NCBI GenBank assembly: GCA_003133025.1
Contig: PKZK01000126.1
Span: forward strand, 1 to 19,759
DNA: 19,759 nt
Direction: 5' to 3'
Source: Vulcanimicrobiota bacterium
GTDB lineage: Bacteria; Vulcanimicrobiota; Vulcanimicrobiia; Vulcanimicrobiales; Vulcanimicrobiaceae
The translations under genes and the position numbers were made by a program. Each line of letters starts with the position of its first letter. Position 1 is the stretch's first letter. Below are positions 12,684 to 18,498 of the stretch, piece by piece. Below the pieces are notes generated by a model. The model saw only the letters and a program-made list of their open reading frames with translations, was not told the origin of the DNA and ran no database searches.

Positions 12684-13566
12684 CGCGCGTCACCCGCGGC
12701 GCGCAGCCGTTCGAGCAGGCCGAGCGCCGGCCGCGTTGCGAGATCCGGCAGCGACTCGAGGTAGGGCGGCCGCAGCACGCCGTATTCCGTAATGATGCCG
12801 GCGATCAGATGGCCCGGCGTCACGTCGAAGGCGGGNNNNNNNNNNNNGCGATGGCCACCGCATACGTGCCGATCTTGTTGGCGGTATCGCCGTTGCGTGC
12901 GATGCGGTCGGCGCCGACGATGGCCGCCTGGACGTTCTTGGCGCGCATCGTGGCCGCCGCCGCGCCGTCGACGATCAGCGTTGCGGGCACGCCCGCCGCC
13001 GCGAGTTCGAAGGTGGTCAACCGCGCGCCCTGCAACAGCGGCCGCGTCTCGTCGACGAATACGTGCACGCGTTTGCCGCGCCGGTGCGCCGCGACGATCA
13101 CGCCCAGCGCCGTGCCGTCGGCGCCGGTCGCGAGCGGACCCGTGTTGCAATGCGTCAACACCGAGCCGTCGTCGGGCATGAGCGCCGCGCCGAACTCGCA
13201 CAGCGCGCGATCGACCGCGCGTTGCTCTGCATGGATCGCGAGCGCTTCGTCGAGATAGGCGCCGCCCTCAGCGGCGAGCACGCGGTCCACGGCCCAGGCT
13301 AAATTGACCGCCGTCGGGCGCGCTTCGCGGATGCGCGCGGCCGCCGCCGCAAAGTCGTCGCCGTCGCCGTGCAGCGCGTGCGCCAGCGCGACGCCGTAAG
13401 CGCCGAAAGCCCCGATGCACGGCGCGCCGCGCACCGCCAACGTCGCGATGGCCGCGACCACGCCGTCGACGTCGACGGCCCGTTCGCGCACCAGGTCGTG
13501 GGGCAACACACGCTGGTCGACGTAGCCGACCGCGTCACCGTCCCACCAAACAGCCTCGAAGCTCAT
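12680..13566 (-). CDS. mtnA: S-methyl-5-thioribose-1-phosphate isomerase; interrupted by N-gap 12836-12847
   Basis: [45 protein letters not shown] and [19 protein letters not shown]. After the gap: [19 protein letters not shown]. Alternative GTG start at 13584. Confidence 0.95.
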
Positions 13567-13622
13567 CGGCGCGGGAGTTCGCACGGAGTGCGCCCCGCGC
13601 CTGGAAGCGTCGGGAGGTTAGT

Positions 13623-13907
13623 TCAGACCCTTGCCGGCGCGTGCAGCGCGAAGCACGCGCGGCAGTAGACGGGCCGATCGCCGCGCGGCTTGAACGGCAC
13701 CGTCGTCGGCGTCGCGCACTGGGCGCAGACGGCTTCGTACATGTCGCGTTCGGCCGAAGACGACCGCTGCGTCTTGCGCGCGCCGCGGCATTCGCGGCAC
13801 CGCTGCGGTTCGTTTTCAAAGCCTTTTTCGGCGTAGAATTGCTGATCGCGAACCGAAAAAACGAACTGCCCGCCGCAGTCCTTACAGATGAGGGTCTTGT
13901 CTTGCAC
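13623..13907 (-). CDS. Small double zinc-ribbon protein (zinc-ribbon plus CxxC-x17-CxxC domain)
   Basis: GTG 13907 with GGAGG 8 nt upstream. QDKTLICKDCG..FVF...DQ.FY.EKGF.NEP.RC.EC followed by C..C..P..VPF.P...RPVYC..CF. Confidence 0.9.
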   Translation of the reverse strand: MQDKTLICKDCGGQFVFSVRDQQFYAEKGFENEPQRCRECRGARKTQRSSSAERDMYEAVCAQCATPTTVPFKPRGDRPVYCRACFALHAPARV

Positions 13908-13994
13908 TTCCTGGGCCTCCGGGTACCGCACCGACCGGCAGGGCCGCCGGGAGATGCGAAAACAGACGGCGGACAAAGCGCCGTCATGCCCCCG

Positions 13995-14023
13995 AGTATA
14001 GGCCAAGTCGTGCCAAAGGGCAA
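13995..14023 (-). promoter_or_regulatory. Putative sigma70 promoter for the zinc-ribbon/mtnA/holA unit
   Basis: Minus strand TTGCCC (14023-14018), 17-nt spacer, TATACT (14000-13995). Confidence 0.65.
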
Positions 14024-14054: not shown

Positions 14055-14522
14055 TTAGCCGACGGCGAGCACCGCCAGCGCGGCCAATGCGGCCTCGTAG
14101 CCCTTGTCGCCCTTCGCCGGGTCGGCGCGTTCTTCGGCCTGGGCCAGCGTGTCGGTGGTCAACACGCCGAAGCCGATCGGAATGCCCGTGGCCAACTGCA
14201 CGTCCATGATGCCGCGCGCGCATTCGCCCGCCACGAAATCGAAGTGCGGCGTCTCGCCCTGGATGACGACGCCCAAGGCCACGATCGCGTCGTAATGGCC
14301 GCGATCGATCAGCCGCCTTGCCGCGAGCGGCAGCTCGAAGCAACCGTGCACGCGGGCGAGGCCCACGTGTTGGACCGCCACGCCGCACTCGGCGAGCGCG
14401 CGCCGTGCGCCGTCCTCGAGCCAGTCCGACAGCCAGGGATAGAATCTCGCGCTCACGATGCAGACGCGCTTACCGCGCCCGTCGGGTAGCGCTCCCGGCT
14501 CCCGTGCAGCCCGCGGCTTCAC
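14055..14522 (-). CDS. ribH: 6,7-dimethyl-8-ribityllumazine synthase
   Basis: IVSARF, VHGCFELP, DAIVALGVVIQGETPHFDFVA, GIPIGFGVLT, QAEERA and KGYEAA. GTGA overlap with ribBA. Confidence 0.96.
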   Translation of the reverse strand: MKPRAAREPGALPDGRGKRVCIVSARFYPWLSDWLEDGARRALAECGVAVQHVGLARVHGCFELPLAARRLIDRGHYDAIVALGVVIQGETPHFDFVAGECARGIMDVQLATGIPIGFGVLTTDTLAQAEERADPAKGDKGYEAALAALAVLAVG

Positions 14523-15928
14523 GATGCCGCCTCGAACAGATGACCCATCTTCTCCCGTTTCGTGTCCATGTAGCGCGCGTTGTGCGGATTGGGTGAGATC
14601 TCGAGCGGCACCCGGCCCACGATGGCTAAGCCGTATCCCTCGAGGCCCACGATCTTCCGCGGGTTATTGGTAATCAGGCGCATTTCGCGCACGCCTAAAT
14701 CGACCAGGATCTGCGATCCGATCCCGTAGTCCCGTTTGTCGGCGGGCAGGCCCAACGCCAGATTCGCCTCAACGGTGTCCGCGCCGCGATCTTGCAACGC
14801 GTACGCCCGGAGCTTGTTGGCCAATCCGATGCCGCGGCCTTCCTGGTGTAAATAGAGGAAAACGCCGCGGCCTTCGCGCGCGATCAATTCCAGGGCCGCG
14901 TCGCGCTGGGCCGCGCAGTCGCAGCGCAGGGAGTGCAGCGCGTCGCCGGTCAGGCACTCCGAGTGCACCCGCACCAGGATGTCCTTGCCGTCGCCGATCT
15001 CGCCCATCACCATGGCCACGTGGGCCACGTCGTCGAGCGCGGTCTCGTAGGCCACGCCGCGGAAGTCGCCGTGCAGCGTGGGCAAGTCGAACTCGGCGAT
15101 CCGCTGGATCAGCTTCTCGGTGCGCATCCGGTAAGCGATCAAGTCCTTAACCGTTACCAACTTGAGCCCGTGGCGCTTGGCGAACTGGCGCAGCTTGGGC
15201 AGACGCATCATCGTGCCGTCCTCGTCCATGATCTCCACGATGACGCCCGCCGGATAGAAGCCCGCCAGCCGCGCCAGGTCGACCGCCGCCTCGGTCTGAC
15301 CCGCGCGCACCAGCACGCCGCCGTCGCGCGCGCGCAGCGGAAAGGTGTGCCCGGGGCGCAGGAAGTCGGAGGGCCTGGCGTTGGGGTCGAGCATCGCGTT
15401 GACCGTGGCCGCGCGGTCCTGCGCGGAGATGCCGGTCGTCGTGCGCCCGCGCGCTTCGACCGAGACGGTGAAGGCCGTCTCGTGCAGGGCGGTGTTCTCG
15501 TCGACCATGAGCGGGATCTGGAGTTCGTCCAGGCGCTTGCCGATGATCGGCACGCAGATCAGCCCGCCCGCCTCGCGGCGCATGAAGTTGATCGCCTCGG
15601 GCGTGACCATCTGGGCGGCCATCACCAAGTCGCCCTCGTTCTCGCGATCCTCGTCGTCGAGCACGATGACCATCTTGCCGGCCCTGATGTCGGCGATGGC
15701 GTCCTCGATCGCGTCGACGCAGCGCTCGCGCCCGTCGCCGAGCCCGGTGGCCAGCTCGGGTAGCGCCTTGGCCAGTGCCTTCATCGAGCGGAACGAGGGG
15801 CTGCGCCGCCCCGAACGCAGCAGCGAAATCGCCGCTTCGGTCAGTCCCGTTCGAGCGGCCAATTCGGCGGCGCTCAACCCGGCACGCTCCATGGCCGACT
15901 GCAGGCTCTCACCAAAGGTCGCGTTCAC
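14519..15928 (-). CDS. ribBA: Bifunctional DHBP synthase/GTP cyclohydrolase II with an N-terminal XRE-type HTH domain
   Basis: DDEDRENEGDL, FTVSVE, TTGISAQDR, RPGH.FPL and RAGQTEA (RibB). RVHSECLTGD, RCDC, QEGRGIGL and TNNP (RibA). About 60 extra N-terminal residues are HTH-like. GGGGAG RBS before GTG 15928. Confidence 0.95.
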   Translation of the reverse strand: MNATFGESLQSAMERAGLSAAELAARTGLTEAAISLLRSGRRSPSFRSMKALAKALPELATGLGDGRERCVDAIEDAIADIRAGKMVIVLDDEDRENEGDLVMAAQMVTPEAINFMRREAGGLICVPIIGKRLDELQIPLMVDENTALHETAFTVSVEARGRTTTGISAQDRAATVNAMLDPNARPSDFLRPGHTFPLRARDGGVLVRAGQTEAAVDLARLAGFYPAGVIVEIMDEDGTMMRLPKLRQFAKRHGLKLVTVKDLIAYRMRTEKLIQRIAEFDLPTLHGDFRGVAYETALDDVAHVAMVMGEIGDGKDILVRVHSECLTGDALHSLRCDCAAQRDAALELIAREGRGVFLYLHQEGRGIGLANKLRAYALQDRGADTVEANLALGLPADKRDYGIGSQILVDLGVREMRLITNNPRKIVGLEGYGLAIVGRVPLEISPNPHNARYMDTKREKMGHLFEAAS

Positions 15929-15945
15929 AGGCTTCTCCCCACGTG

Positions 15946-15988
15946 TTTACAAACGTAAATCCCTAGTTCCCGGATTTACGTTTGATAA
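15946..15988. promoter_or_regulatory. Two operator-like 14-bp palindromes forming a 13-bp inverted repeat upstream of HTH-ribBA
   Basis: TTTAC-AAAC-GTAAA (15946-15959) and TTTAC-GTTT-GATAA (15975-15988). CAAACGTAAATCC (15950-15962) is the exact reverse complement of GGATTTACGTTTG (15972-15984). AT-rich island in GC-rich DNA. Confidence 0.65.
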
Positions 15989-16068
15989 GACCGTCGAACG
16001 TCCCGTTTCGTTTCCAAGGCACGCACGAGGCGAACCGGCGCCACCGACGGCCGGCCCTCAGCCGGCCG

Positions 16069-16485
16069 TCAGTCTGCTGAGACCTTGCTCCGCAAGGCGT
16101 CCGCCAGTTCGGCCGGCAGCGAAACCGAGCGGTTTCCCGTGTCGACGCACGAGGCGACGAGGGTTAACGCCGCCGTCTGAGCATTGTCCGATTCGCGCAG
16201 CACGTCGACCTTGAAGCGCACCGAATGCGCGCCGACGCCCGCCACCCGCGTGCGCAACGTCAGCACGTCGTCGACGGCAGCGGGCCGGAAGAAATCGAAC
16301 TCGAGGTGGACGTGACGCAACTGGACGCCCAAGCGCCGGAACGCGGAATCGTCGAAACCGATCGCGCGCAGCGTCTCGTGTTCCGCTGCCTCCATCAAGC
16401 GCGCGTAGGCCGCGAAGTTGACCGTACCGGACCCGCCGACGTCGGAACGCCTCACGCGTTCGTTCACTTCCCACTCATATTTCAT
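16069..16485 (-). CDS. Hotdog-fold acyl-CoA thioesterase family protein (4HBT/YbgC-like)
   Basis: ATG 16485 overlaps the end of the riboflavin synthase gene. VRRSDV..SG.VNFAAYARLME, ..DF.RPA..DD.L, VG..SV.F and LP.EL...L; 138 aa. Confidence 0.85.
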   Translation of the reverse strand: MKYEWEVNERVRRSDVGGSGTVNFAAYARLMEAAEHETLRAIGFDDSAFRRLGVQLRHVHLEFDFFRPAAVDDVLTLRTRVAGVGAHSVRFKVDVLRESDNAQTAALTLVASCVDTGNRSVSLPAELADALRSKVSAD

Positions 16486-17122
16486 AGGCCCAGGCGAGTT
16501 CGTCGCTGCTCGCGTCGCTCCCGCGAGCATACGCCGCAGCCGCGCCGAGGGCATATCGGGCCACCGGATCGATTTCGAGGTTGACCCGGTCGCCGGGACC
16601 CTTGAAGCCGAAGGTCGTGCGCGCCGAGGTTTCGGGAATGAGCGCGATCTCGAACCGGCCGGCGGCGACGGCCGCAACGGTGAGGCTCACGCCGTCGAGC
16701 GCGATGTAGCCTTTCTCCACGATGTACGCTTCCAGGCCCGCGGGCAGATCCAGCGCGAGGCGGTGTCCCTGACCTTCGGGCACCCGCGAGATGATCGGCG
16801 TCGTCGCGTCGACGTGCCCATACACGAAGTGCCCACCCAGCCGGTCGCCCAGCCGCAGCGAGAGTTCGAGGTTTACCCGGCCGTTGAGGTGCAGGCTGCC
16901 CAGCGTCGAGCGCGCGAGCGTCTCGGGCACCACGTCGAAGCGCACGATCGAGGCGTCGTGCTCCACGACCGTCAGGCAGACGCCGTCGATCGCGATCGAG
17001 TCCTTGTCGTCCACGCCTTCGGCGATCGCCCGCGGCGCCTCGATGCCCAGCCGCACGCCGCCGCGCGGGTCGCGCGCGAACTCGGCCACGCGCCCCGCGT
17101 GCGCGATCAAACCCCCGAACAT
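16475..17122 (-). CDS. ribE: Riboflavin synthase (alpha chain)
   Basis: MFGGLI start, DSIAIDGVCLTV, ETL..STLG, VNLE, RLGGHFVYGHVD, KGYIALDGVSLTV, LIPET and VNLEID. Confidence 0.96.
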   Translation of the reverse strand: MFGGLIAHAGRVAEFARDPRGGVRLGIEAPRAIAEGVDDKDSIAIDGVCLTVVEHDASIVRFDVVPETLARSTLGSLHLNGRVNLELSLRLGDRLGGHFVYGHVDATTPIISRVPEGQGHRLALDLPAGLEAYIVEKGYIALDGVSLTVAAVAAGRFEIALIPETSARTTFGFKGPGDRVNLEIDPVARYALGAAAAYARGSDASSDELAWAYEI

Positions 17123-17125
17123 CGT

Positions 17126-18220
17126 TTAGAGCCTCCCGGACACGAGCAGGTCGTCACCGAGCAGTTCGACACGCTCGAAACGAACCTGGGTGCGCCCGGC
17201 CGCTTCGGGCGCCAAGGCCGGAAGCGCGCCGGGCCCGGCCAGGGTCAGCGGCGCGATCAACCAGTCCAGCCGGTCGACGAGTCCGGCCGAGAGCAGCGAC
17301 CCGGCCAGCGCCGGCCCGCCCTCGCAGAGCACGCTCGCGATACCGCGCGCGCGCAGCTCGCGTAGCGCCGAAGCCGGATCGAGCCGTCCGTTCGCGCCGG
17401 CGGCCACATACGCCACCTCGGCCACCGCCTCGAGCGGCGCGAACGCCTCGCGCGACCGCGCCGGCACGAGCAGCAGCGTCGGCGCGTAGCCGTCGACGGG
17501 CACGAACACCCGCGCCGCCGGGTCCGGCGGACGTTCGCCGCAAGCCACGATGCGCCGATAGGGCACGCGCCGCGCCCGCGGCGGCCGCACGGTCAGCAGC
17601 GGATCGTCGCAGCGCAGCGTGCCCGCGCCCACCAACACCGCATCGTACGCCGCACGCAGGTCGCGCACGAAGGCGCGTGCCGGCTCGCCGGTGAGCCGGT
17701 AGTTGCCGGGCTCCGGCGCAACGTAGCCGTCGAGCGAGGCAGCCATCTTGAGCCGCACGTACGGCCGCCCCGCCGTCACCGCAACGGCGAAATCTTCGAC
17801 GATCGCCGCGGCCAAGGGATCGTGCGCGACCTCGACCTCGAGACCGGCATCGCGCAAGCGCGCCACGCCGCCCGCGGCCGTGCGCGGGTTGGGATCGAGC
17901 GCACCGACCACCACGCGCGCCAGGCCCGCGGCGACCAGCGCTTCGCTGCAGGGCGGCGTCGCGCCGTGATGGTTGCACGGTTCGAGCGACACGTACATCG
18001 TCGCGCCGCGCACGTCGTGCCCCGCGACCGCGGCCGCGTGCAACGCCTCGACCTCGGCATGCGCGGAGCCTTTGAAGCGGTGGAAACCTTCGCCCAGCGT
18101 GCGCGCACCGCGCACGACGACCGCGCCGACGCACGGGTTCGGCGAGGTACTGCCGCGCGCGCGCTCGGCCAGTTCGCAAGCGCGGCGCAGGTAGATGCGA
18201 TCGAGCGCGTCGAGCGCTAC
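17126..18220 (-). CDS. ribD: Bifunctional pyrimidine deaminase/reductase RibD (start uncertain)
   Basis: PNPCVGAV, HAE, LEPCNH...TPPC, KMAASLDG, DDPLLTVR and LCEGG. No ATG/GTG/TTG near the expected N-terminus, so the 5' limit is placed at the DUF427 stop overlap. Confidence 0.93.
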   Translation of the reverse strand, partial: VALDALDRIYLRRACELAERARGSTSPNPCVGAVVVRGARTLGEGFHRFKGSAHAEVEALHAAAVAGHDVRGATMYVSLEPCNHHGATPPCSEALVAAGLARVVVGALDPNPRTAAGGVARLRDAGLEVEVAHDPLAAAIVEDFAVAVTAGRPYVRLKMAASLDGYVAPEPGNYRLTGEPARAFVRDLRAAYDAVLVGAGTLRCDDPLLTVRPPRARRVPYRRIVACGERPPDPAARVFVPVDGYAPTLLLVPARSREAFAPLEAVAEVAYVAAGANGRLDPASALRELRARGIASVLCEGGPALAGSLLSAGLVDRLDWLIAPLTLAGPGALPALAPEAAGRTQVRFERVELLGDDLLVSGRL

Positions 18221-18498
18221 GGGAGTACCTCGACCCCGCGCCAGAACGCTACGCGACCCTTGATGTCCTGCGCCGCGGTCTTGGGCGTCGGATAGTACCA
18301 CGCGGCGTCGGGATTTTTCTTGCCCCCGACCTCGAGCGAATAGTACGACGCGACGCCCTTCCAGGGACACGTCGAATGCGTCTCGCTCGGCTTCAGATAT
18401 TCGGCCACCACCGACTCGGCCGGAAAATAGTGGTTGCCCTCGACGACGACGGTCGCATCACTCTCGGCGATGACGGTCCCATTCCAAACGGCTTTCAT
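18217..18498 (-). CDS. DUF427 family protein
   Basis: MKAVWNG.VIAES...VVEGNHYFP, CPWKG.ASYY, AAWYYP.P and I.GRVAFW.GV. ATGA overlap with comF. Confidence 0.92.
   Translation of the reverse strand: MKAVWNGTVIAESDATVVVEGNHYFPAESVVAEYLKPSETHSTCPWKGVASYYSLEVGGKKNPDAAWYYPTPKTAAQDIKGRVAFWRGVEVLP

Follow-up and report, generated by a model that had tools for sequence, protein, structure and literature searches.

What does a DNA-binding domain do at the front of a riboflavin biosynthesis enzyme? The locus raising this question lies in a stretch of 19,759 nt (hereafter the window), in which a gene for RibBA begins with about 60 codons that an initial annotation had assigned to the XRE/Cro helix-turn-helix (HTH) pattern. 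The gene and its parts are as follows:

14055..14522, minus strand: ribH (lumazine synthase), second gene of the ribBA-ribH unit
14519..15928, minus strand: HTH-ribBA gene, 469 aa, GTG start, TGA stop (ORF and translation, Pfam, NCBIfam)
14606..15103, minus strand: GTP cyclohydrolase II (RibA) domain (Pfam)
15131..15706, minus strand: DHBP synthase (RibB) domain (Pfam)
15716..15757, minus strand: variable linker between HTH and enzyme, about 14 residues (58-71) (low column identity, low pLDDT)
15758..15916, minus strand: XRE/Cro-type HTH domain, residues 5-57 (Pfam HTH_3, AF2, Foldseek, conservation)
15935..15940, minus strand: Shine-Dalgarno-like GGGGAG, 7-12 nt 5' of the GTG start (direct reading)

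The N-terminal assignment held, as HTH_3 (PF01381) matched residues 10-56 (E 1.5e-8, 35 bits vs a Pfam cut-off of 23) and the region also exceeded the Pfam cut-offs of HTH_31 and HTH_26. In the same 469-aa reading frame, as had been claimed, follows an intact RibBA with both enzyme domains complete: DHBP_synthase covers residues 75-266 (E 1e-89, profile positions 1-191 of 191) and GTP_cyclohydro2 residues 276-441 (E 8e-71, profile positions 2-165 of 165), and the NCBIfam RibBA equivalog NF006803 scored 628.3 bits over residues 69-467 against a cut-off of 569. The cyclohydrolase translation contains a Cys-x10-Cys-x-Cys stretch that we take to be zinc-binding. RibBA is predicted to be necessarily active because the gene is the sole match to PF00926 and the sole match to PF00925 found in its own, 80% complete genome; this argues for a gene product that works as a RibBA enzyme. 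From codon 50 to codon 85 there is no in-frame ATG, GTG or TTG, in agreement with the earlier observation that the RibB boundary lacks a start codon. Since the GTG start of ribH overlaps the ribBA stop (GTGA), ribH is the second gene of the unit. The good ribosome-binding site described in the initial annotation is present in the window but is not a general trait: judging by promoter geometry, the mRNA is predicted to be leaderless at 76 of 92 fused loci (75 of the 91 relatives), a layout that in the window gene is replaced by the Shine-Dalgarno sequence.

Might the fusion itself be an artefact of assembly or annotation, i.e., two genes or a frameshift? A stop or frameshift between HTH and RibB had been named at the outset as the observation that would speak against it. 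Two DNA contigs from other studies (X3 record 21 and X9 record 28) read through both the junction and the upstream region, the first with no difference, the second with one, and neither with an indel. All 92 fused loci examined, that is, the window and 91 relatives, have intact ORFs of 449-491 aa with the start codon at the same place, and their N-terminal part is conserved at the amino-acid level. Five frameshifted representatives in the protein library are merely broken copies of the same fused gene. The artefact reading, for which we found no supporting point, is refuted as far as sequence data allow and keeps a negligible probability; the HTH-RibBA gene is confirmed as a real fusion.

Among the 120 close homologues listed, 111 carry an HTH Pfam family. 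Counting as fused each match that starts at query residue 3-5, as read off the match rows, we found the fusion in 108 of the 112 genomes of its own family (f1) with a match and in 3/3 of the sister family (f2), vs 0/15 in a neighbouring family of the same class (f3). When 1.84 billion representatives were scanned with the HTH profile, 7/7 full-length N-terminal matches scanned combined the HTH with DHBP_synthase, and among these the HTH subfamily appears to occur only with RibB. As to fusions outside the phylum, the profile scan gave only same-lineage broken copies and generic multi-HTH proteins. At E <= 1e-5, the profile matched only the ribBA N-terminus in the fused genome G036 and had no match in the 4 unfused genomes searched. 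The Atlas contains one weak lead for the HTH-RibBA architecture outside the phylum. The source names noted for close homologues all read plain RibBA, which points to a systematic annotation gap.

The HTH domain, modelled alone with AF2, reached a pLDDT of 83.5 and folded compactly into five helices (residues 5-16, 20-27, 31-39, 46-55 and 57-67, the last one also delimited as 57-63), of which helices 2 and 3 form the HTH and residues 31-39 the recognition helix. Best Foldseek matches were XRE DNA-binding domains with TMq 0.71-0.83 and probability 1.00; their E-values of only 2e-3 to 3e-2 reflect the short domain. The top matches are dimeric XRE DNA binders, several of them solved on DNA, namely C.BclI, C.AhdI, DdrO, P22 c2 and SinR. 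The full-length AF2 model, based on a shallow alignment, was mediocre (pLDDT 67.8) and was used solely for the HTH helices and for a floppy linker, with pLDDT below 50 at residues 62-69. Conservation follows the same division: among 32 relatives, mean column identity was 0.74 in the HTH, 0.42 in the linker and 0.88 in the DHBPS domain, the HTH being under constraint with 11 invariant residues and the linker unconstrained. Residues in the recognition helix vary little or not at all.

A candidate DNA target for this domain is found directly upstream of the gene. The family consensus is a 14-bp dyad, TTGACAnnTGTnAA, with 6-bp arms and a 2-nt spacer, that overlaps the -35 box. In 92/92 fused loci at least 9 of 12 positions match TTGACAnnTGTCAA, with the first base 29-38 nt before the start codon. 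Information amounts to 1.3-2.0 bits at 11 of the 14 dyad positions, 0.96 bits (C at -1) and 1.11 bits (G at +14) at the abutting bases, 0.5-0.9 bits at a few positions downstream and at most 0.4 bits over the 29 bases upstream, values that are somewhat inflated because the profile was anchored on the chosen motif. Most fused loci have a single site lying across the -35 hexamer and spacer of a promoter with near-consensus TTGACA. The left half coincides with the -35 consensus; only for the right half (TGTnAA) and the dyad symmetry is a factor other than sigma required.

The dyad is furthermore specific. Over 259,188 positions from 30 loci, 58/58 matches of at least 10/12 sit at ribBA upstream sites. 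The exact pattern occurs at five places in five fused genomes, four of them the ribBA promoter; the additional site, in G045, precedes a gene that by eye reads like a Fur-family regulator. The dyad is thus essentially unique per genome searched. Upstream neighbours vary between loci, and no other regulator gene is a constant neighbour.

In the window, the initial annotation had pointed to paired palindromes, and an inverted repeat is indeed present, with arms at 15943-15962 and 15972-15991 and 9 nt between them. The features upstream of the gene are as follows:

15946..15959, minus strand: O1, proximal candidate operator TTTACGTTTGTAAA, first base 31 nt before the GTG, the window's version of TTGACAnnTGTnAA
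15975..15988, plus strand: O2, distal candidate operator TTTACGTTTGATAA, inverted relative to O1, 29 bp centre to centre
16043..16073, minus strand: GC-rich hairpin with 13-nt arms and a 5-nt loop, spanning the stop codon of the 4HBT thioesterase gene that lies upstream

The window site is duplicated and diverged, having drifted to TTTACGTTTGnnAA, and matches the family consensus at only 9/12 positions. Exact matches to TTTACGTTTGNNAA in its own genome are O1 and O2 only. Paired sites about 28-29 bp apart are seen in the window and in several close relatives. The TAnnnT -10 at the family position is not recognisable in the window (16 of the 92 loci share this lack, the window included), and a simple promoter scan together with a terminator scan of 15800-16200 found nothing, including no canonical terminator. 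The GC-rich hairpin is likely a transcript end without a T-run that separates the upstream block from ribBA. A wider regulon was considered and rejected: sites with one mismatch elsewhere in the own genome numbered four vs one for the reversed control, lay in or beside unrelated ORFs and were taken as chance. The ribD-ribE block has no dyad site, so any control would be limited to ribBA-ribH and not extend to the whole pathway.

Genomes with an unfused RibBA provide the comparison that links domain and site. The site is absent in nine of ten unfused genomes; the tenth, G134, has one away from ribBA, at an unrelated divergent promoter flanked by a cupin-like gene and by a gene resembling, by eye, an ArsR-type regulator. 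In G077, which has lost the HTH, TTGACA, a TAGCCT -10 and the spacing of a leaderless gene persist, but the right half-site is gone. HTH and dyad were, by this comparison, apparently lost together. Within the fused loci, the base at operator position 12 varies with the residue at the beginning of the recognition helix (residue 32), Ser accompanying A or C in 58/63 cases and Ala or Gly accompanying T in 25/29. After phylogenetic correction this co-variation is suggestive, with 3.4 of five independent pairs changing the same way and 0 the other way (p ~0.125) in an underpowered test.

We consider it probable that HTH-RibBA is a self-repressing trigger enzyme. Enzyme and DNA-binding domain reside in one polypeptide, and the gene has a candidate cognate operator in 92/92 fused loci that is absent without the HTH. 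The N-terminal XRE-type HTH would bind the 14-bp dyad in its own promoter, presumably with two HTH heads joined through dimerisation of the enzyme. In most relatives the site spans about -36 to -23 from the start codon, which is the predicted transcription start, with its left half serving as the -35 hexamer. As the site overlaps the -35, a bound protein would keep RNA polymerase off the promoter, and the expected outcome is negative autoregulation of ribBA-ribH by the enzyme's own concentration. The initial proposal of a self-regulated ribBA-ribH unit thus gains strong comparative support from conservation, the dyad and the joint loss, whereas DNA binding remains its predicted part.

The position of the dyad also bears on the sign of regulation. 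The HTH could instead bind as an activator or as a dual switch that activates at low and represses at high occupancy, as do the controller (C) proteins of restriction-modification systems, its closest structural matches. C-protein operators are paired, and some C genes are reported to be leaderless. C.BclI and C.AhdI as best Foldseek matches, the two sites about 28-29 bp apart in the window and several close relatives, and the many relatives predicted to be leaderless would all fit such a switch. However, most loci offer a single site over the -35 and spacer, a position that usually blocks RNA polymerase, and a near-consensus TTGACA promoter should need no activation, which makes an activator or dual switch improbable and repression the reading that we prefer.

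We likewise see little chance that the HTH is a structural or protein-interaction module, or binds elsewhere, the dyad then serving another regulator or extending the promoter. Among the fold matches, at rank 44, is HEPD (6b9r), an enzyme that has an XRE-like head and is not known to bind DNA; the left half-site is the -35 consensus; and the co-variation test did not reach significance. A general promoter feature, however, would not be unique per genome, as the dyad is in the five fused genomes searched, and it vanishes together with the HTH; the varying upstream neighbours include no constant regulator gene, and the recognition helix is held (nearly) invariant. Finally, the 13-bp inverted repeat of the window might act as RNA, i.e., as a hairpin for attenuation, processing or stability in a read-through transcript from ribD-ribE. 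The intergenic RNA folds well, with a minimum free energy of -65.3 kcal/mol (z -3.0), and a 9-nt loop closed by a perfect 13-bp stem is part of the fold. But the unit conserved in 92 loci, two 6-bp arms separated by a 2-nt spacer (14 bp), is unable to form a hairpin, it is single-copy in most relatives, no Rfam family matched, and the upstream gene already ends in a GC hairpin of its own. We regard an RNA role as very unlikely.

Metatranscriptome contigs (X18, X19) match the gene only in patches within its enzyme-coding part; most are 90-95% alike and so probably stem from relatives, and one 221-nt piece at 14566-14786 is perfect. They do not cover the HTH region or promoter, hence no transcription start is visible in them.

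FMN riboswitches are the usual control of bacterial rib genes. None had been seen before either rib block by the initial annotation, which suggested a genome-wide Rfam scan. No Rfam family reached its gathering score anywhere in the window, and the FMN riboswitch (RF00050) was found neither there nor in the own genome (80% complete), nor in any of 151 genomes of the phylum (0/151), with the control detected in 7/14 known genomes. The candidate dyad occupies the same niche, the 5' side of rib genes, but the riboswitch is RNA-based and senses FMN. A direct replacement of the riboswitch by the fusion, as judged from phyletic complementarity, was rejected, as RF00050 is missing from fused and unfused clades alike. 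It is possible, though rather doubtful, that the fused protein goes beyond concentration-dependent autorepression and is a flux sensor, standing in for the FMN riboswitch as a metabolite-responsive protein. A flavin, or filling of the RibB or RibA active site by ribulose-5-P, GTP or a product of the pathway, might then alter the spacing or availability of the HTH heads and, with it, promoter occupancy. The initial annotation had likewise raised the possibility that GTP, ribulose-5-P or a flavin is sensed through oligomerisation. Such a sensor would be built into the first committed enzyme and act on a leaderless mRNA on which RNA-based control is not possible.

The closest solved folds, C.BclI, C.AhdI and C.Esp1396I (TMq up to 0.83), belong to C proteins, small XRE dimers that target dyads in the promoters of their own genes. 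Unlike these free-standing proteins of about 75-80 aa from restriction-modification systems, the head described here is tethered to a 400-aa enzyme. No restriction-modification genes are present here, and the C-protein operator sequence is presumably unrelated to our dyad.

Among enzymes, PutA is a bacterial enzyme-repressor or trigger enzyme. Like BirA, NadR and PutA, HTH-RibBA is a metabolic enzyme with an N-terminal DNA-binding domain and is predicted to repress genes of its own pathway; cofactors or pathways and DNA-binding folds of the three differ from those here, and their catalytic state gates DNA binding. BirA and NadR are named as bacterial enzyme-repressors also in the work on archaeal RbkR, in which a riboflavin kinase and a winged HTH are fused (Rodionova et al. 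2017, PMC5397151). RbkR, too, unites an enzyme of the riboflavin pathway with a DNA-binding domain in a single polypeptide, occurs in lineages without FMN riboswitches, and has operators before riboflavin genes including its own, as the candidate site here lies at the own gene (PMC5397151). In contrast, RbkR is a CTP-dependent kinase with a winged HTH from Archaea, not a RibBA with an XRE domain from Bacteria; it controls a multi-gene regulon, whereas here only the own promoter carries a candidate site, and it has proven ligands, CTP stimulating and FMN suppressing it (PMC5397151).

Other regulators of riboflavin genes are built differently. In Wolbachia, according to a study that mentions XRE, the transcription factors wBmxR1 and wBmxR2 bind the promoter of a bifunctional ribA of RibBA type; unlike here, they are separate proteins, which activated a ribA reporter and regulate a type IV secretion operon as well (PMC3518464). 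RibR of Bacillus subtilis is a protein involved in riboflavin gene regulation that acts on riboswitch RNA and not on DNA, with no RibBA fusion (PMC13028884). We found no report of an HTH-RibBA fusion in the literature, and a 2026 riboflavin review contains none of the terms 'helix-turn-helix', 'XRE' and 'RbkR'.

The setting is one order of peat and soil bacteria, while riboflavin is otherwise a textbook case of riboswitch control in bacteria. If self-repression is true, riboflavin would join the short list of cofactor pathways with an enzyme-repressor (biotin with BirA, NAD with NadR and archaeal RbkR). HTH-RibBA would then be a compact, self-contained autoregulatory part consisting of one protein and one 14-bp site, and a natural test of how a DNA-binding head, when tethered to a dimeric enzyme, recognises a dyad that is also a -35 box. 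Should the less certain flux-sensor reading also prove true, HTH-RibBA would be the first transcription factor of bacteria dedicated to riboflavin synthesis.

The 469-aa product of the ribBA open reading frame combines HTH_3 (residues 10–56; E 1.5e-8; 35 bits, cut-off 23), DHBP_synthase (residues 75–266) and GTP_cyclohydro2 (residues 276–441) in Pfam and passes the NCBIfam RibBA equivalog (628 bits vs 569). The XRE/Cro helix-turn-helix that the initial annotation read in frame with an intact RibBA is thus found in a single ORF. Its remark that no start codon lies at the RibB boundary holds as well, for within codons 50–85 the sequence has no in-frame ATG, GTG or TTG; the observation is borne out in full. 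That the fusion is an artefact is scarcely credible, since contigs of two other studies bridge the junction (15650–16300 with 0 differences, 15653–15963 with 1 difference) and ORFs were intact in 92/92 fused loci (449–491 aa). Insertions or deletions in these contigs were reported nowhere on the stretch, and the frameshift or stop between HTH and RibB that the annotation had considered finds no counterpart in them. In its own 80%-complete genome, HTH-ribBA is the sole DHBP synthase and the sole GTP cyclohydrolase II gene; with no second gene found for either, HTH-RibBA is, judged by gene content, presumably the working enzyme.

The features around the gene are the following.

Minus strand: phosphoribosyltransferase-like gene
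18220–18495, minus strand: DUF427 gene, 92 aa (Pfam E 7e-35)
17126–18370, minus strand: ribD, as maximal ORF
16475–17122, minus strand: ribE
Ending at 16069, minus strand: 4HBT thioesterase gene
16043–16073: GC-rich hairpin spanning the stop codon of the gene upstream of ribBA
Between the 4HBT thioesterase gene and HTH-ribBA: intergenic region, 140 bp
15975–15988, plus strand: O2, distal copy of the candidate operator, TTTACGTTTGATAA
15946–15959, minus strand: O1, proximal copy, TTTACGTTTGTAAA, 31 nt before the GTG
14519–15928, minus strand: HTH-ribBA, 469 aa
14055–14522, minus strand: ribH, its GTG overlapping the ribBA stop

With the hairpin covering the stop of the upstream gene, ribBA-ribH would seem to form a unit of its own. 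The DUF427 gene ends where the ribD deaminase domain starts and overlaps the maximal ribD ORF, so that the real start of ribD is probably near 18200, and ribD and ribE are part of a longer run of co-directional genes that leaves them no separate intergenic region. A treble-clef zinc-finger protein (zf_Tbcl + zf_Tbcl_2; 13623–14006, minus strand) is encoded in the same orientation as ribH, 48 nt beyond its end, and is a possible further member of the ribBA-ribH unit. An N stretch at about 12820–12850 breaks an IF-2B-family gene (12820–13584, minus strand) and leaves X runs in its translation.

The HTH-RibBA protein served as query against 201 genomes of the phylum. In the window's own family, 112 of the 113 other genomes gave a match, and 108 of these 112 matches, read by eye, began at query residue 3–5 and were fused, four of them in two pieces; in G018 the gene was cut by the contig end, and in three genomes (G077, G145, G162) RibBA was unfused. 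The sister family was fused in 3/3 genomes, while a neighbouring family of the same class was unfused in 15/15 (in the loci read, its ribBA begins MPLA and follows ribE directly); families further off were unfused or gave no RibBA match. These tallies take in two unpublished genomes, G178 (fused) and G128 (unfused), on which none of the conclusions rests. By this sampling, the fusion is therefore characteristic of a single order, not of the phylum at large. Among the matches listed, the HTH Pfam family was present in 111 of 120 close homologues (81–100% identity), the other nine being one truncated protein and eight full-length ones without the family in the precomputed list. Their source names read 'Vulcanimicrob...' and 'Candidat...', Vulcanimicrobiota being a phylum in NCBI taxonomy. 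The best-matching metagenomes came from peat, moss and permafrost.

From about 112 fused genomes we examined 92, namely 30 whose loci were returned as the top matches, the two with the weakest match among full-length fused genes and 60 picked down the match list, leaving out contig-edge cases, split genes and G178. The start codon occupied the same place, usually with few open codons upstream. Eleven HTH residues were invariant among 32 relatives, including G28, T30, E31, S35, R42 and P44, and mean column identity was 0.74 in the HTH, 0.42 in the linker (residues 58–71) and 0.88 in the DHBPS domain, a pattern indicating that the HTH domain is maintained. AF2 gave the head five helices (pLDDT 83.5 when modeled alone) and the linker low confidence at residues 62–69. 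Foldseek against the PDB returned XRE DNA binders as best matches (C.BclI with TMq 0.83, C.AhdI, DdrO, operator-bound P22 c2, DNA-bound SinR, ClgR), with weak E-values because the head has only 68 residues; by sequence, the nearest solved chains were an immunity repressor and the 434 repressor (E 1e-3 to 2e-2). In a head-profile scan of 1.84 billion representatives, all seven full-length N-terminal matches examined were HTH + DHBP_synthase, the five of them whose sequences were read being frameshifted copies from the same lineage, and the hits beyond these seven were generic multi-HTH proteins; no close free-standing relative of the head was found in this set. One Atlas cluster (58 proteins, ~269 aa; DHBP_synthase 100%, HTH_3 33%, score 0.78), with Pseudomonadota as commonest named taxon, may be an independent HTH-RibB fusion or mislabelled fragments and serves as a lead only.

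Upstream of fused ribBA, the sole conserved block in the alignment was TTGACAnnTGTnAA. All 92 fused loci matched TTGACAnnTGTCAA in at least 9 of 12 positions, the first base lying 29–38 nt before the start codon; in the second batch, of 60 loci, it lay at −34 to −38 without exception. Eleven of the 14 site positions carried 1.3–2.0 bits, the directly flanking bases 0.96 and 1.11, a few downstream positions 0.5–0.9 and the 29 bases upstream at most 0.4, values somewhat inflated because the profile is anchored on the motif. Across 259,188 positions in 30 loci, all 58 matches of at least 10/12 were ribBA sites or second copies just upstream. Genome-wide, the exact pattern occurred at five places in five fused genomes, four being the ribBA promoter and the fifth lying before a gene reading like a Fur-family regulator; G097 lacks an exact match because of a C at site position 9. 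TTGACA was followed after 16–19 nt by TAnnnT in 76/92 fused loci, the latter ending 5–9 nt before the start codon (6 nt in 50). This would be a sigma-70-type promoter whose transcript starts at or beside the start codon, hence a leaderless mRNA. In roughly 20 of the 92 loci (L021, L027, L046, L060, L065, L069, L072, L089, L090, L098, L104, L106, L109, L112, L115, L116 and others), a second short conserved string, GTATATCnnC, directly adjoins the dyad upstream, immediately 5′ of TTGACA; it could be an UP-like element, an operator extension or a remnant of a neighbor's palindrome. Six relatives (L016, L017, L020, L024, L026, L028) have a divergent TetR-family gene (TetR_N) and then an MFS_1 transporter upstream of HTH-ribBA (e.g., L024:2923-4384), with a 26-bp palindrome, ATACTTGAAACGnnCGTTTCAAGTAT, at the TetR start about 40–70 bp off the ribBA dyad.

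In the window, O1 and O2 are inverted, 29 bp centre to centre, and therefore form a long inverted repeat, which accounts for the paired palindromes noted before the gene. They are the only exact matches to the window's site in its own genome; a second copy about 28–29 bp upstream also occurs in L004 and L009 and, more weakly, in L003 and L007. The window's locus departs from most relatives in lacking TAnnnT at the family position and in carrying a Shine-Dalgarno sequence, GGGGAG. A simple scan found no promoter there. Read by eye, TTATCA-17-TAGGGA is a possible promoter; O2 would then coincide with the −35 hexamer and O1 with the transcription start.

Site and head largely occur together. The exact site was missing in nine of ten genomes without the fusion, and the tenth had one copy in an unrelated divergent promoter. 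The headless RibBA of G077 (L033), G145 (L034) and G162 (L032), inside a fused family, are natural HTH-deleted controls. G077 keeps TTGACA, a TAGCCT −10 and the leaderless spacing, and its right half-site is gone, reading TTGACAccGTTTGC; it looks like a clean deletion of the head with the leaderless promoter retained. At E ≤ 1e-5 the HTH profile had no match anywhere in G077, G145, G162 or G041, so the head was lost, not split off; in fused G036 the ribBA N-terminus was the only match. Operator position 12 varies with residue 32, which opens the recognition helix: Ser32 went with A or C in 58/63 loci and Ala/Gly32 with T in 25/29. A tree of the enzyme part alone gave five independent pairs; on average the base changed in the same sense in 3.4 of them, and it never changed in the opposite sense. 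With p about 0.125, the co-variation is suggestive only. Positions 3 and 12 changed together (T/A and A/T) in the window's site and that of L002, keeping the dyad, as a dimeric reader would demand.

We consider it probable that HTH-RibBA uses the head to repress its own promoter, in negative autoregulation of ribBA-ribH. The head would bind the candidate dyad in the ribBA promoter. Dimerization is established for the RibBA family and would provide a dyad with the pair of heads it requires. At the loci predicted to be leaderless, the dyad lies at about −36 to −23, over the −35 hexamer and the spacer, and bound protein would therefore exclude RNA polymerase. That a metabolite gates DNA binding is a more doubtful addition. 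We think it unlikely that the protein works as an activator or dual switch, like a C protein, and equally unlikely that the head leaves this DNA unbound. Far less probable still, the inverted repeat in the window could act as an RNA hairpin. The dyad itself, with 6-bp arms around a 2-nt spacer, cannot fold into one.

Among known systems, the closest concept is RbkR of Archaea, which differs in enzyme, fold, domain of life and regulon (PMC5397151). In Wolbachia, transcription factors separate from the enzyme act on the ribA promoter (PMC3518464), whereas here the head is fused to RibBA. Within Bacteria, the comparable class is that of BirA, NadR and PutA. No HTH-RibBA fusion was found in the literature searched outside subscription journals, a term search within a 2026 review included.

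The FMN riboswitch (RF00050), which the initial annotation had not seen before either rib block, was indeed absent from the window and also from its own genome. It was found in 0/151 genomes sampled from the phylum, with or without the fusion and including clades with ordinary RibBA; the same search was positive in 7/14 control genomes. The lineage would seem to be without the usual riboflavin control, which does not by itself make the fusion a replacement for it. HTH-RibBA itself is a real, conserved, unannotated fusion, probably an enzyme–repressor, with a well-defined candidate operator.
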